Program-made: the position numbers and the translations under genes
Part shown: positions 9,690 to 24,833 of the stretch, one piece after another
Position numbering within the stretch: the stretch's first letter is position 1
How the letters are laid out: each line of letters starts with the position of its first letter
The notes under the pieces: generated by a model
Told to the model about the DNA's origin: nothing
What the model saw: only the letters and a program-made list of their open reading frames with translations
Databases searched by the model: none
Origin: a virus
Virus record (IMG/VR): IMGVR_UViG_3300045988_096839
Reading direction: 5' to 3' (one strand)
Length of the DNA stretch: 64,000 nt

Positions 9690-12600
9690 TTATTTACACT
9701 CCTTTTCTCTTTTCTTACCATTTTCAGTAAGGTTCTTCTAATCAGTTTCAGTAATAATATTAGATGTTTTATTATTGGTAGTTTTATTATCTGCTGTTTG
9801 CATATCATCGTTGTTTGCAGTAATTAATAATACCTATGCACTAAACGGAGAATTACCATTTTCATCATTGTATTTTGTATCCATTGGACTTACAAATCCT
9901 GCAGGTTTTGCACTTTCTAAGAACTGAACATTTTTTGGGAACGCGTCTATAATTTTCTGCATTTGTTCTTTAGATGCACTACCGATTACTGCTACTTTAG
10001 CTTTAGGATAATTCAACTTACCTTTAATAGAATTAAAATGTATGAATTGTTTATCTTTAAATTCGCTATACTTAACCATATTAGAAGCTTCTCTAGACGC
10101 ATTACCATCATCTACATAAACAACAATATCAGCAGCATCTATTGTAGCTAAATCAGCTTTACCGTTTCCTAATTTACTTAATAATTGAGAGAAATCCATA
10201 GAATCAGTAACAGGTATAGCTTTGTTTACTAATGTTTCATACTTCTTGTTTTCTTTCAAAGTAAGATCGATATCTTGTGAATTACTAAAGTGATCTTCAG
10301 ATTCGTATAACAATGATTTTACTTTACCATCTTGTACATAACCATCTGATCTTACTGCATAAGCTTGGAATTTAAAATTACGATAACCTAATCTTCCTAT
10401 TTTGTAATATACTGGATTAACATAAGTATTACCATCAGCAGATTTAGATGTTATCATATCTCCAATCTTATACAAATCATATAAACCAAGTTTGTTTTTA
10501 ACTTTAACGTATTTTGCGTATAAACCAGTGCTAAAACTTACTAATTTATTAGAACCTTTCTTAATAATAAGAATATTATTATCTCCACTTACAGGGAAAG
10601 ATCTATTATATATCTTACTATTAGAAATATCTTTAGCAAAATCATCATCGAATTGAGCCATCATTAACTCAGCAACTTCGATTATGTCATCGTTAACAAC
10701 ACTATCTGGTTTAGATAAGTTATTCATAAGATTTTCAACATAGTTGTTGTACGTTACTCCATTTACTTCCAAATTAGCTAACAACCTAGGTGGAACCAAA
10801 TCAAATATACTTGTTTTAGTTAAACCTGATGCATTAGTATCTGTACCACCAGTTATAAAGAACATGTAAACTGCCAAATCTTTAGCGTATTGTTGCAATT
10901 TAGCATCATCACTCTCATACAACTCTTGCCAAGCTTGAGTTATGTTTGCTTTGATATCAGTATCATCGCTAACTGCGCTATTAACATTAAAGAACTTAGG
11001 CGACCCAGTAGTTGTTCTAGCTGGTTTCAACATATCAAACAGAATTTTACCTGTATTAGTATATTCAGCTAATTGTTTCATTTCGTTGAATCTATCAACT
11101 ACTGTGTTATCTCCAGCAAGAAATTCTTTTAACGGTAATTGACTATTACTAAATTGTTTAGCAATATAAGCATTAAAGAATGTACTCAGTAAAGCAGTTC
11201 TTAATCTTTGACTAAAGCGTTTAACTTGCATTTTACCGTATGCTCCATAAATACCATATCGTTTAGATATTTTATCTATAGTATTCACATAACCTGGTGA
11301 GAATTCAAGTAATACTTTACTAAATATATTAAACAACGCTTTTACACCGAAATCGTATTTCTCACCTAAGAATGTTTTATCAAACAAATCTTGAGGATTA
11401 CTGAATGTAGTATTATATTCAGAAGAGAATTGTTCGTGAGATTGCATAAACTTAATGATATCATTTGCACTAATACCGTATTTACCAGTATCAATCTGTG
11501 CAGCATTTACCATTGTTCTATAATCACCAGACATTCTCTTAAGATACAAGAACGTATTCAAATATCTAATTTGTTGTTTATACCATTCTTCAGAGTCTGT
11601 TTTCTTGATATTGTTTCTAAGATTCTAAGCGCTCATTTCTTCTGGAGTAGCCTTATCGTTAGGATCATATACATAATCGTCTGGTAATTTATCCACGTAA
11701 TTCTTTATAATTTCCTGTAAATAATTTTCACCAGAAGCTCGTTCAGCATCAACACCTACTTGACCTTTCTTAAGATCTACATAGTTGTCTGCAACTTCAC
11801 AAATTATAGGTTGTCCTAACAAGTAATAAGTATCGTTACCCATACCGCAAGATATTAACATTGATACGATATCAAACGTAAAGTCATTTACATTCATTCG
11901 ACCAATATAGTTATCCTTAACGGCATCCACGAACGCATTAATCAATGCAGATGTACTATCTACAATACTTTCACCATTTCTATCAAATATTCTAGGAATA
12001 CCATTATCTTCCAAAGACAATCCTAAACTATTCAGATAATCGTTATCTTGTAATTTTATAGATGCCATCTGTATAAACGCTCTAACAACGTTATTCAACG
12101 CCATAGGACCGATACCAGCACTAGAACCTGCATTTTTAGTACGTTGCTCTATCTAGAATACAGGATTTAAGAACCATCCACCTTTTTTAGTTCTAGGATC
12201 TTTTGATACACCTTTCAAGTTGTCTATATCGTCTTTGATTGCTCTCAACGGGTCTGTTGTAACATCCAAAGGAGTAACAGTATCAACTCTATGATGTTCA
12301 TTGGTAAGTATTAAGAAATATATATCAAGTAGCACGTTCTGTAACTATTCGATTGACACAGAATCATCATTTAAATGATTTAACAAATTATTCAAATTAT
12401 AATCTATTTTCTGTGCTTTACCATCTTTTATTTTAACATTTGGTCTAGACAAGAACATCTTATCGATATCGAAGTCAGAACCAGTTAATGCAGTAATATC
12501 TGATGGGAACATTATAATATCACCTCTTTGTGGTTCAAATACGTCTACTACCTTAATAGGAATAGTTGAGTTCTGACCCTGAGTAGGTACACGATATGAT

Positions 12601-15600
12601 AAAGCAAACAATATACCTTGATTATCCAAAAGGAATTGTCTTTGAACGTCGAATGATTCGTTCTGTAATCCTGCTTCTTTTATTATATCTTCAAACAAAC
12701 TTATAGATAATTTTACTTCCATAAAACCATCTTCATTATATGATTTAAGTTTGCTATCAGCAGACATCTTATTTTTCAAGATGTTATCATAACCTACACT
12801 AGATACCTGGAATAATGGTTTACCTGGAGTCATAATCTTAATGACTGTCTTTTCCATCAAAGCTATGATTCGAGACTATATCCAGTTTATATTAGGTAAT
12901 GCTGAAGGATGTATAACATATTCACCATCTACAGCTGATAAAGCATCCATCATTTCAGGAGTAGCACCTTGAGTAGAAGCCATATCTTGTACAGCAGACA
13001 TGAATTTTTCTTTATTTACATCAAAAGTATTAGGATCGATACCAAATTTTCCGCAGAAAGTTTTATAACCTCTTAATGTCAAAGCATCCAATACTTGCTG
13101 ATAAATTCTTAACAGTTTATCTCCTTTTACCTATACACCGTTAAGTTTATAAGTATGTTTACGGTCAGTATTTAATATAACTACTTTCATAAACTGGGTA
13201 AGTAAAGCAGCTTTGTTATGTTTATGAGGATCAGTATTTAACTGTTTACCAAAGTTTTCAAATTCCTGCATTTGTTTTGGAGCATTTCTGAATGCTTCTT
13301 TGTCGATTTTACCGTCTTTATCATATAATTCAAAACTAGGTATATTTCCAGTCTTAGTACAGCTTTCCATCTTCATGAAATCAGTTTGTGTTTCTTTCAT
13401 TAAATCATAAACGTCTCTCATGTCATGTTCATCTGCAAATATTTTAAATATTGGAGAAGCAGAAAGCTTATCGTATATTTTAAATATATCTTGACTAGAA
13501 CTGTTAGCATCATTACCAAAGAATACATATTTTAATGAGCCCCATATATAATTTCTAGTAAATCCTAATATTTGACCACGATATTCTTTTGGAGAAATTT
13601 CACCAGATTTAAATTTGTTAAATAAATCTTCAATAGATGCAGTATCAATGTTTAATTGTTGCATCATATTTGCATATTCTGTAGGATTTATTTTCTTTAT
13701 TACATCTAGTTCATCATAATGTTCCAATAAGTCGTATGCGTATTCATCTTTAATGGACCATTCTCCTTGACGCTGTTTTAACTATCTGTACATCTCAGCA
13801 GATACCCACGATTGTGCATCAGTCGGATCAATACTACGATACTTAATCAATCTGATATAAGCGTTATCTGTAACTGCTTTAGCCAACTGTTCGTCAGTAA
13901 GTGGTTCACCTTTTTCGTTTACACCATAAGTTCTACGTTGATCTCTATGTTCTAGATATCTTTGAACAAGTTCACCTTTTTTAGCTTGTGGTATAAGATT
14001 TCCTTTACTGTCTAGCAGTTTCTTATAATTCAAACAATTATATTTTACTTTTCCGTCAAGTGTTTCAGGGACATTCAAACTTTCATCAAATGCATCTACA
14101 CCTAAGAATGTTTTTGCTTCACGCTTAAATTTATCCAAATCGTCCACAGGAGTAGTATTTACTTCTATAACACGATATTCTGAAGCATCGTACAATCTAT
14201 CTTCAGCGAAAGCATTAACTATTGTTCCTTTACCGTTTTTCATTGCAACTGTAGATGTTTGCGCAGAATAACGTTTGTTTACAGCATCAATATCTTTGTA
14301 TTGAGCTTTATCACCAGAAACAAGTTTTTCAAATTCTAGGTTATCACACATGTTGTTCATAACAAAGTATGCTACAGCTCTCATTATGTCCGAACTACTT
14401 AACTTCTTATTACCTGCTGGGTTTATTTTCTTATTATCAAGAATTACATTTTCCGGTAATAATTTATTCTATAGTTCCATCTGACCCAACGATTCAACGG
14501 GATTATATCCAGATATTATTTCTTTTGTATCTAAGAAATCCAATACCTGACGTATATTCCATTCCAACATATTTTCGATATATTGCTTTACTTCATCACG
14601 ATTTAACCATTGTTCTATTTCAGTATTAGTAGTTGATGCTGATATCTTGAAGCCATCTAACAAGTCGTTGAAATGTCTTGATTTGTACCCATTGTTTTTA
14701 GGAGAAACCAAATTTATACCAAAATTACGAACAGTAAATGTTCCATCTGGGTTCTTTATAGGATCACCACCTTTTTTACTATAGTGATAAGCTAATCGTA
14801 AATTTACAAGAAGTGGAGCAACATCTGGTCTCTTAAACAAAGCTTCTTGTTCTTCTTGACTCATTGCAGATATAGATTCTGCTGTGTATTTTTTACCAGT
14901 AGCTTTGTTTACAGCGTTAACGAAGTTATCTCTAACGATATATGCTTCCCTTATGGCTTCTAATTCAGATCTAAAGTATCCTCTGAAAGTATCAACAGCG
15001 TTCTGAGTAACCATGAATTTATAACCTATCTTCTGAATAGGACATTCTTCCATAGGAATACTATCTATGATGTACTGTGTCTTTTTATTAGCAAGTTCAG
15101 GTATACTATGGTAATTAGACAATGCTGTCGTGAAACGATTTAACATATCTTCTGTACCAGTAATACCCAAGAAGTCATTACTATTAAAATAATCACTATC
15201 ATTCACTGTACCAACAAAAGTACGCAATATAGGATAATTCTTCTTAGCTATAAAAGATAACCATTTTGAACCACGATATTTAACTTTCTTTCCATCCAAG
15301 AACTCCTTGGTATAAGGATTATTTGTAAATCTTTTTATGAAATCATTGTTAAATATTAATCTGTTAAAGAATCTAGTAACGTGATTATACTGACCAATAA
15401 TATATGCAGTAGCACCCCCTGCTATTCTTACTGTGTCGTTTTTAGCACTACCTAAGCCTTCACTAGCTAATTGTTCCATTAATAAGAACAATAAAGTATT
15501 ATTATCAGGATTAAATTGATCATTAACGATACTACTTATTTCTTGTTTAGATGTTAACAATCGTTTAGCGAATAGTGAATTCTTCATTTTAAGTAAGAAT

Positions 15601-24600: not shown

Positions 24601-24833
24601 ATCTACGATTCTTGCATATCATTATAGTATTTATGCCAAAAATCGGATAACTACATTCCTTGTACGTTATCCGTTGGTGCTTCATTATAATAATATGCAG
24701 CATCTGCCGATGACTATCTATTAAGATAAGCACCGGCATTCTATCTCATTGCTAAATTTTGCTGTATACGATCATTCAATAATTTTGAGTCTCCCTCTGA
24801 ATAATCGCGTAATAAATCTTTTTTAGTATTCAT
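9690..24833 (-). CDS. giant 5,047-codon frame containing the virion RNA polymerase (two-barrel, beta-prime-like DFDID) module; TAG read as sense
   Basis: All track ORFs from 9834..11561 to 23391..24566 are in one frame. I hand-translated every gap and found 32 in-frame TAG and no TAA/TGA. The first ATG is 24831-24833, after an upstream in-frame TAA at 24849-24851. The real stop is TAA 9690-9692. YRVPTQG...(38 aa)...GSDFDIDKMF mirrors NRAPTLH...(34 aa)...NADFDGDQM of bacterial beta-prime. HEAFH is at 17097-17111. There is a Gly/Ala-rich hydrophobic stretch at about 24010-24240 and a long coiled coil at 21669-23072. Confidence 0.7.
12462..12476 (-). other. DFDID metal-binding triad codons of the RNA polymerase module
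   Basis: The plus strand reads atc gat atc gaa gtc, which is GAC TTC GAT ATC GAT (D F D I D) on the minus strand, in frame with 9690..24833. Confidence 0.7.

Follow-up and report, generated by a model that had tools for sequence, protein, structure and literature searches.

The DNA stretch recorded in IMG/VR as the viral sequence IMGVR_UViG_3300045988_096839 (64,000 nucleotides, here called the window, meaning the whole stretch that was analysed) raises the question of whether a reading frame of 15.1 kb on its minus strand can be a single gene and, if so, what a product of that size would consist of. The frame runs from an ATG at 24833 to a TAA at 9692-9690 and contains neither TAA nor TGA in between, its only internal stop codons under the standard code being TAGs. 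Since TAA and TGA together account for ~7% of codons in the other frames of the same strand, a run this long is not producible by chance (the probability of 5,047 codons without either is roughly e^-380). As argued below, the frame very probably encodes an end-to-end fusion of ~570 kDa, in which a cargo protein resembling gp47 of phage crAss001 and gp67 of phage phi14:2 is joined to an RNA polymerase (RNAP); it would be a late gene of a Suoliviridae phage that reads TAG as Gln, and its virion role is assigned by homology. Coordinates of this giant gene, its parts and its neighbours are collected in Table 1.

Table 1. Location of the giant gene, its recognisable parts and neighbouring genes in the window (aa, amino acid residues)
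Feature	Residues (aa)	Position	Strand	Basis or remarks
Giant coding sequence	1-5047	9690..24833	−	5,047 sense codons + TAA; 32 in-frame TAG
N-terminal module	1-700	22734..24833	−	Moderate conservation among Suoliviridae-type giants
Gly/Ala-rich, mildly hydrophobic, glycine-zipper-like segment	216-291	23961..24188	−	G+A at least 45%
Charged, Pro/Gly-poor α-helical region	~573-1250	21084..23117	−	Low conservation, gap-rich alignment
Variable region	~1251-1900	19134..21083	−	Eight-giant alignment: occupancy 0.29-0.61, identity 0.05-0.12
gp67-like conserved domain	1932-2076	18606..19040	−	blastp to cr4_1 and cr1_1 giants; hhalign to gp67
HExxH ('zincin-like') module	~2500-2790	16464..17336	−	HEAFH at 17097-17111 (aa 2575-2579)
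Predicted crAss-type virion RNA polymerase module	~2800-5047	9693..16436	−	phmmer, hhalign and blastp homology to gp66, gp50
Catalytic block YRVPTQGQNS…LTGSDFDIDKMF	4080-4127	12453..12596	−	DFDID at 12462-12476
Lys/Glu-rich C-terminal tail …KKREKECK	5033-5047	9693..9737	−	Cys C5046 at 9696-9698
gp65/gp49-like 'RNAP-associated' gene	about 1,792 in all	4309..9687	−	22 TAG; blastp; HExxH at aa 347
AAA ATPase		945-1826	+	TAG-free
Metallophosphatase		1805-2722	+	TAG-free
PDDEXK/DUF3799 nuclease		2706-3713	+	TAG-free

That the frame is a functioning gene can be seen from a second IMG/VR contig, IMGVR_UViG_3300045988_126168 (57.9 kb, from a separate assembly), which matches 21.5 kb around the giant gene at 98.87% identity, with 243 mismatches and no indels. 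The giant frame is intact there as well (30 TAG codons and the terminal TAA), and the contig shows no TAA, TGA or frameshift that would break it; the single frame without TAA or TGA that was described in an earlier reading of the sequence (hereafter the original prediction) is thus confirmed both by codon count and by an independent assembly. Codon differences between the two giant genes comprise 139 synonymous and 52 nonsynonymous changes, which give a ratio of nonsynonymous to synonymous change (pN/pS) of 0.097 for residues 1-2550 and 0.083 for residues 2551-5047, against 1.16-1.30 when the same substitutions are scored in the two shifted frames. This ratio is uniform over all the pieces of the gene that lie between TAG codons. 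The gene is therefore genuine and coding, and both of its halves are under strong purifying selection. No match was found when the 15 kb were compared by megablast with GenBank phages, and by this comparison the phage is only distantly related at the DNA level to deposited genomes.

The C-terminal ~2,250 residues are supported as a predicted single-chain, two-barrel, DNA-dependent RNAP of the type of phi14:2 gp66 and crAss001 gp50. When residues 3401-4500 were searched with phmmer against all PDB sequences, the sole match was 6VR4, the entry for phi14:2 gp66 (E 4e-34), and hhalign aligned residues 2800-3450 with residues 201-813 of the same protein (probability 97.4%). Matches to gp66 and to gp50 were also obtained with blastp (E values of 7e-21 and 3e-12 were recorded), the one to gp50 covering residues 3662-4449 of the giant in a local search. 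The catalytic block pairs residue for residue with the YRIPNQGQSS…GSDFDIDKMY of gp66, is invariant across the giants that were aligned, and has the same 38 residues between R4081 and D4120 as its gp66 counterpart. The original prediction had recognised a polymerase module here from the letters of the sequence, with a YRVPTQG…DFDIDKMF segment at 12462-12590 and a spacing of 38 residues between RxPT and DFDxD; the gp66 homology and the aligned catalytic blocks bear out the module, the position proves right to within a few codons, and the spacing is confirmed. Homology extending over residues 201-1760 of gp66 should also take in the second (β-like) double-psi β-barrel. According to the literature, phi14:2 gp66 is packaged in the virion and acts as the RNAP for early genes.

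The N-terminal ~2,750 residues are supported, again by comparison of sequences, as a cargo protein of the gp47/gp67 'RNAP-associated' type that would end in an HExxH…E module. Two domains anchor this assignment. The HExxH block aligns in hhalign with residues 2100-2294 of crAss001 gp47 (a protein of 2,341 residues) at a probability of 98.8%, both having the motif YHEAFH, and residues 1932-2076 align with residues 1087-1232 of phi14:2 gp67 (probability 77.8%, E 1.9e-5). Gene order agrees with these matches: the tail tubular gene is followed by genes for a muzzle/stabilisation protein of 1,381 aa and for proteins of 672 and 631 aa, then by the giant, a gp65-like gene and a switch of strand. The order is that of Suoliviridae genomes and corresponds to gp43-gp47 (plus gp50 and gp49) of crAss001 and to g072-g065 of phi14:2. 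In the comparison with cr4_1, cr1_1, cr6_1, crAss001 and phi14:2, the giant occupies the transcription-block position downstream of the tail/muzzle and cargo genes, and the separate gene to which its N-terminal half corresponds is gp47 or gp67.

A plain fusion of two genes therefore accounts for the size of the giant, as gp47 and gp50 add up to 4,753 aa (gp67 and gp66 to 3,977 aa) and the giant has 5,047. The original prediction, which had suggested fusion of the polymerase with neighbouring ejection or cargo proteins, was right as regards one upstream neighbour but not the two smaller genes of cargo-like type (672 and 631 aa), which are still separate from the giant. The size, put there at 2.5 times that of a known virion RNAP, is not exceptional, single giant coding sequences (CDSs) being the rule in Suoliviridae. 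Six exemplars from four subfamilies of that family each have one giant CDS at this position, namely cr114_1 (4,272 aa), cr113_1 (4,328 aa), cr6_1 (4,400 aa), cr4_1 (4,491 aa), cr1_1 (4,551 aa) and cr50_1 (4,774 aa); for cr4_1, cr114_1, cr113_1 and cr6_1 the annotation shows a single CDS. MT835645 (Mexico), the nearest record in GenBank, likewise recodes TAG; its protein has 5,334 aa, and its frame counts 5,337 codons. When residues 2472-2929 were searched exhaustively with HMMER against 1.84 billion representatives, 80 relatives were returned, including at least 10 clusters of 5,067-6,581 aa with the HExxH module near residue 1,830-2,760; many other relatives are 4,047-4,797 aa long. Fused 'huge polyproteins' of crAss phages have been described in the literature (with citation of Yutin 2018), as have crAss RNAP genes of up to '~6000 aa' and giant multidomain proteins that form the transcription block. 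The window giant is thus a divergent new example of an arrangement already described, and not an unusual one.

Two side observations were made on the relatives found with HMMER. The larger ones (P0009, P0010, P0013, P0015, P0019, P0026, P0021, P0028 and P0043) have extra C-terminal segments beyond the RNAP, which by eye look NADAR-like (…AEHAYQ…), like a P-loop/RecD-like helicase (GxAGTGKT), or of other kinds, in proteins of up to 6,581 aa. About one third of the relatives of at least 2,000 aa stop at, or a few residues from, the catalytic …TGSDFD (P0006, P0022, P0025, P0027, P0030, P0031, P0049, P0050, P0066 and P0069). Contig ends, introns and frameshifts are possible causes of calls that break inside the active-site motif, which is intact in the window; for Zeta-group phages, Yutin 2021 reports a DxDxD motif disrupted by stop codons and by frameshifts.

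Another feature shared by the polymerase-bearing proteins is found at their very end. Cysteine content is low (0.15% of residues in giants and relatives, 13/5,047 in the window giant), and a Cys is present in the last 8 residues of 28/32 full-length RNAP-bearing relatives (2,180-6,581 aa), including gp66 (…KQECK). A terminal Cys is also found in crAss001 gp47 (…LRCNS) and phi14:2 gp67 (…NTIC), and is lacking in gp65/gp49-like proteins. The preprint on gp66 does not mention a C-terminal Cys. This nearly universal residue might serve as a signal for packaging or ejection, or as a point of covalent attachment.

Several results weigh against parts of the picture given so far. Residues 1-1900 have no similarity to gp47 or gp67 that hhalign could detect, and the gp47/gp67-type assignment of this part draws on synteny and the two anchored domains. 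For the HExxH module, no Pfam family was found at E up to 1 and no match in PHROGs, and a profile search against PDB sequences returned no peptidase. AlphaFold2 (AF2) gave a poor model of the module from 5 sequences (mean pLDDT 45.5), for which Foldseek found nothing in the PDB at E ≤0.001 (best E 2.9). As for decoding, ARAGORN detected no tRNA gene in the 64-kb window, hence no suppressor tRNA(CUA). The decoding agent must therefore be encoded elsewhere in the genome or be otherwise supplied; according to a review, a suppressor is carried by only ~40% of TAG-recoded genomes, and many have no identifiable one.

The HExxH module stands at the junction between the two halves, and the way in which the giant would function depends on how it is interpreted. 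Its HEAFH lies exactly where a zincin-like motif had been noted in the original prediction. In eight diverse sequences a G, H2575, E2576, an A, H2579, E2615, A2618, F2621 (the last three at 16971-16991) and a later GxY are invariant. The four database homologs that were suitable for modelling have the same pattern, and the Glu 36 residues past HExxH is invariant in both alignments; mean column identity of the module alignment is only 36%, and identity to the window sequence 20-26%. An HExxH followed some 36 residues on by a Glu, in an E..A..F helix, is the ligand pattern of gluzincins. The low-confidence AF2 model places a β-hairpin first, then the HExxH helix, one more helix and the helix with the Glu, an order compatible with a zincin core. 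The invariant H, E, H and E at the junction suggest that a metal-dependent activity has been retained, and we call the module zincin-like by motif, a match to a peptidase family or fold not being among the results of the library searches.

The location of the module is regular as well. In 29 proteins with total lengths of 2,292-6,581 aa, DFDxD follows HExxH at a distance of 1,337-1,655 aa; in the window giant this distance is 1,545 aa. In P0056 (2,292 aa) and P0064 (2,428 aa) the module is at the very N-terminus, the gene starting ~65 aa before HExxH; in these two and in P0028 (3,238 aa) it forms the N-terminus (residues ~66-304) of an RNAP-sized protein. The gene for crAss001 gp47, on the other hand, ends ~185 aa past HExxH. 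With the module N-terminal in the former and C-terminal in the latter, the side on which the gene boundary falls therefore differs by lineage.

One interpretation, which we take as a real possibility without leaning towards it, is that the giant would be made in one piece and later cleaved, either inside the capsid or once ejected. The cut would be the work of the giant's HExxH module or of the possibly paralogous one encoded downstream, and would give a gp47-like protein and a free RNAP as in crAss001 and phi14:2. Self-processing of this kind is consistent with the location of the module exactly at the junction, with gene boundaries that in nature fall before or after it depending on the lineage, with the invariance of H, E, H and the downstream E in spite of the low column identity, and with the occurrence of homologs as separate virion proteins. 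It has been proposed in print for crAss fusions, with an analogue for the MPTase domains found on N4-type virion RNAPs, and Drobysheva et al. considered that activation of the virion RNAP might need proteolysis. Arguing against it are the failure of the Pfam, PDB-profile and AF2/Foldseek searches to detect a peptidase family or fold, the remark of Iyer et al. that polyvalent proteins with an MPTase domain are in some cases transferred at full length, with the domain maybe having other roles, and the possibility that the module acts on host targets instead. Nor was a conserved motif for a cleavage site found, although none was looked for. If the module were an active self-processing protease, fused and split genomes would yield the same mature proteins, and the activator of the virion RNAP that has long been sought would be this module.

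It is also conceivable, and in our view somewhat unlikely, that the module is no peptidase at all but a metal-binding or structural domain (for packaging, DNA binding or regulation of the RNAP), in which case the fusion would stay uncut. All peptidase library and fold searches were negative, and the fixed distance to the catalytic centre in 29 proteins suggests that the module behaves as an integral N-terminal domain of the polymerase unit. No similarity was detected, moreover, between the giant's module and the MPTase region of the N4 virion RNAP; the gp65-type module gave a weak match to that region (probability 16%). Such a domain would nevertheless have kept the canonical gluzincin pattern of HExxH and a downstream E..A..F helix, together with a predicted order of elements that fits the zincin core at low confidence; its relationship to the gp65-type module, termed zincin-like in the literature, also has modest support.

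Whatever its activity, the module may be described in evolutionary terms as a mobile 'junction' domain which, depending on lineage, forms the C-terminus of the cargo protein, the N-terminus of the polymerase or an internal part of a fusion, always some 1.4-1.6 thousand residues ahead of the active site, and which has a paralog in the gp65-like protein. We regard this description as doubtful and advance it as a suggestion from the comparison of boundaries given above.

A very improbable alternative is that the frame is in fact several genes, some of the internal TAGs being true terminators followed by re-initiation, so that no protein of 5,047 aa is made. The presumed host reads TAG as a stop, and the window has no suppressor tRNA, just as reviews report for many recoded crAss genomes. 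Read with TAG as a sense codon, however, open reading frames (ORFs) of at least 150 aa cover 98% of the window, against 55% under the standard code, where TAG stops would cut the giant into 33 pieces; no such gain in coverage is seen when TGA is treated as sense, and all ORFs of the window terminate in TAA or TGA. Both of the differences from contig 126168 that involve a TAG have CAG in the contig, a strain 98.9% identical. In an alignment with six relatives the TAG at residue 4227 corresponds to Q in 6/6, and those at residues 4163 and 3986 partly to Q; the TAGs at 4163 and 4227 fall within the most conserved segments of the RNAP, and the standard-code relatives cr1_1 (4,551 aa) and cr50_1 (4,774 aa) have homologs of the giant without internal stops. 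The uniform pN/pS of the pieces between TAGs also argues against separate genes. On the CAG partners, the pN/pS values and the alignment with Gln we rejected this alternative, and TAG is a sense codon here, most likely for Gln (genetic code 15); metaproteomic confirmation of TAG-to-Gln decoding in Suoliviridae has been reported in the literature. That an assembly chimera or a decaying pseudogene mimics a long ORF, as might be imagined for a sequence of metagenome origin without a megablast match among GenBank phages, is so improbable that we discarded it in view of the colinear contig 126168 without indels, the strong purifying selection on both halves and the dozens of independent database proteins that share the architecture.

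A single TAG-recoded gene for a fused cargo protein and RNAP thus remains our preferred reading, within which the N-terminal half can be subdivided further. Six overlapping 1,000-aa tiles of the giant gave nothing at or near threshold in Pfam and PHROGs. The N-terminal module matched by tblastn inside the giant CDSs of cr114_1, cr113_1, cr109_1, cr10_1, cr50_1 and MT835645; beyond such giants no relative of residues 1-~1,900 was detected by Pfam, PHROGs, tblastn or hhalign. In a word-indexed protein search the N-terminal 621 aa gave 1 hit, the HExxH region 1 and the 8-sequence HExxH alignment 4, numbers too small to build a deep alignment. Comparison by hhalign of residues 1-1900 and 2150-2490 with crAss001 gp44-50 and phi14:2 gp65-70 gave no credible match except one of the Gly/Ala-rich segment to gp45. 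This segment, which the original prediction had put at about 24010-24240, is real, and a composition scan places it at 23961-24188; it is present too in the close relatives P0001 and P0006-P0013, and does not reach the Kyte-Doolittle threshold of 1.5 for a transmembrane segment. Its sole profile match is to the predicted transmembrane helix of crAss001 gp45 (40 columns, probability 78%), and is probably compositional.

Further along, the proposed coiled coil of about 470 residues stands in part. Residues 588-1055 are highly charged and poor in Pro and Gly, and AF2 run on the single sequence predicts almost nothing but α-helix for residues 573-1054, if at low confidence (pLDDT 50). The 3.5-residue heptad periodicity is patchy (in a crude test), and the predicted helices of 30-68 residues are separated by breaks. 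These results support a helical region but do not extend to a continuous coiled coil. The variable region that follows supplies much of the surplus length of the window giant over the exemplars of 4.3-4.8 thousand residues.

Downstream of the giant, the gp65-like gene counts 1,794 codons as an ORF in full (4309-9693), with an ATG 2 nt past the giant's TAA. It matches phi14:2 gp65 (E 2e-41) and crAss001 gp49 (E 6e-32) in blastp, and also cr4_1 gp27 and cr1_1 gp_19429. Its own HExxH (PHEYAHRY) is of the type termed zincin-like in the literature, and profile-profile comparison with the module of the giant (E 2.5e-5, probability 75%) lends modest support to the idea that the two HExxH modules of this gene block may be paralogs. 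By eye, a DTHTY-type motif follows the HExxH of the gp65-like protein, maybe as part of a PDDEXK domain; such a domain has been reported in the literature for some transcription-block proteins.

Beyond the gp65-like gene the window changes in character. At ~4.2 kb the strand switch coincides with a change of sign in GC skew, and four genes on the plus strand span 945-4228, namely the three named in Table 1 and one for an unassigned protein of 172 aa. The plus-strand genes are essentially without in-frame TAG and nearly all minus-strand genes carry it. Absence of TAG is as expected of replication-module genes readable in the host code, and in the literature TAG-to-Gln decoding in Suoliviridae is mainly a matter of late structural and transcription genes. 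The claim of the original prediction that the giant, being coded with TAG, would be made late fits both the gene pattern of the window and these reports. As a side observation, a minus-strand ORF of 157 codons (33719-34192), next to the tail tubular gene on the upstream side, contains 8 TAGs in frame and no CAG or CAA; all of its presumed Gln codons are thus TAG, and with 50 per 1,000 codons it has the highest TAG density in the window. In cr4_1 and cr114_1 the matching position is taken by the glycine-zipper 'peptidoglycan-associated protein-like' gene.

From homology with gp66 and with crAss001 gp47, gp49 and gp50 we infer the following course of events. The giant would be translated late in infection, when TAG is decoded as Gln, and packaged into the capsid along with the products of the gp65-like gene downstream and of the cargo genes upstream. 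Ejection would then bring it, in a partly unfolded state, into the Bacteroidota host before the DNA or with it, and there it would transcribe the early phage genes without relying on the host polymerase. What this scheme says of packaging, ejection and the transcription of early genes is transferred from the characterised homologs, and any proteolysis is likewise inferred.

No new principle follows, as both giants with a fused virion RNAP and the idea that they may be processed have been published before. Standard-code gene callers split the gene into 33 pieces, and a domain map anchored to gp47, gp67 and gp66 allows correct annotation of a hallmark gene in the largest crAss group of the human gut. 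The remaining novelty consists of the pattern that comparison brings out around the HExxH module, and of the conserved C-terminal Cys. Taken together, the distance of HExxH from the active site, the gene boundaries on its two sides, the second module downstream and the C-terminal Cys make the processing hypothesis experimentally specific.

Among known systems, the N4-type virion RNAP with its zincin-like MPTase (Iyer et al. 2017) resembles the giant in being an early polymerase delivered with the virion and accompanied by an HExxH motif, and the logic proposed for it is parallel (packaged, ejected, possibly self-processed). Unlike the giant, N4 has a T7-like single-subunit polymerase that bears no relation to the two-barrel fold, and its HExxH is C-terminal to the polymerase. 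Another known system is the experimentally characterised crAss-like virion RNAP phi14:2 gp66 (PDB 6VR4), which is homologous to the giant over gp66 residues ~200-1760, has the 38-residue spacing from R to DFDID and likewise ends in …ECK; it differs in being a stand-alone protein of 2,180 aa without HExxH, the upstream gp67 (1,797 aa) being a separate gene. In crAss001 the C-terminal module of gp47 corresponds to residues ~2500-2800 of the giant, gp50 to its RNAP half and gp49 to the downstream gene. The crAss001 genes, in contrast to the window, are split right past the HExxH module, with gp49 and gp50 on the opposite strand; gp47, gp49 and gp50 have been found as separate virion proteins by mass spectrometry and assigned to the cargo zone of the capsid.

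The closest counterparts are the giants of Suoliviridae, the Delta group of crAss-like phages, namely YP_010112556 (cr4_1), QOR58537 (cr1_1), YP_010110216 (cr50_1) and YP_010112711 (cr6_1), which are single CDSs in the same syntenic position. Like the window giant they have the N-terminal module, the gp67-like domain, HEA[FW]HR and an RNAP with YR[IV]P[TA]Q…DFD[IV]DK, and the exemplars share with the window a gp65-like gene downstream and, in 4/6, TAG recoding. Identity of the window giant to them is 24-31% over an alignable 2,300 aa, and it is 270-775 aa longer than the exemplars, mostly in residues ~700-1900 and 2100-2500. None of the homologous giants is labelled a virion RNAP in GenBank, where that of cr50_1 appears as 'DNA helicase', that of cr113_1 as 'DprA-like DNA recombination-mediator protein', that of cr6_1 as 'nuclear pore complex protein-like protein' and the others as 'hypothetical protein'.

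Different genes of the window differ in their nearest relative within this family. The major capsid protein is 90% identical to that of cr6_1 (Suoliviridae, Bearivirinae, Afonbuvirus), 80-82% to those of most other Suoliviridae and 72.5% to that of cr50_1, and all flanking genes are nearer to cr6_1 (PDDEXK nuclease 73%, tail tubular protein 61%, AAA ATPase 61%, the upstream 631-aa protein 49%). The giant, by contrast, is nearer to cr4_1 of the Loutivirinae (27-31%, against 24.5% to cr6_1), and so is the gp65-like gene (30.6% over 1,381 aa, against 19.8% over 590 aa to cr6_1). These comparisons point to module exchange, or to extreme heterogeneity of rates, confined to the two-gene transcription block.

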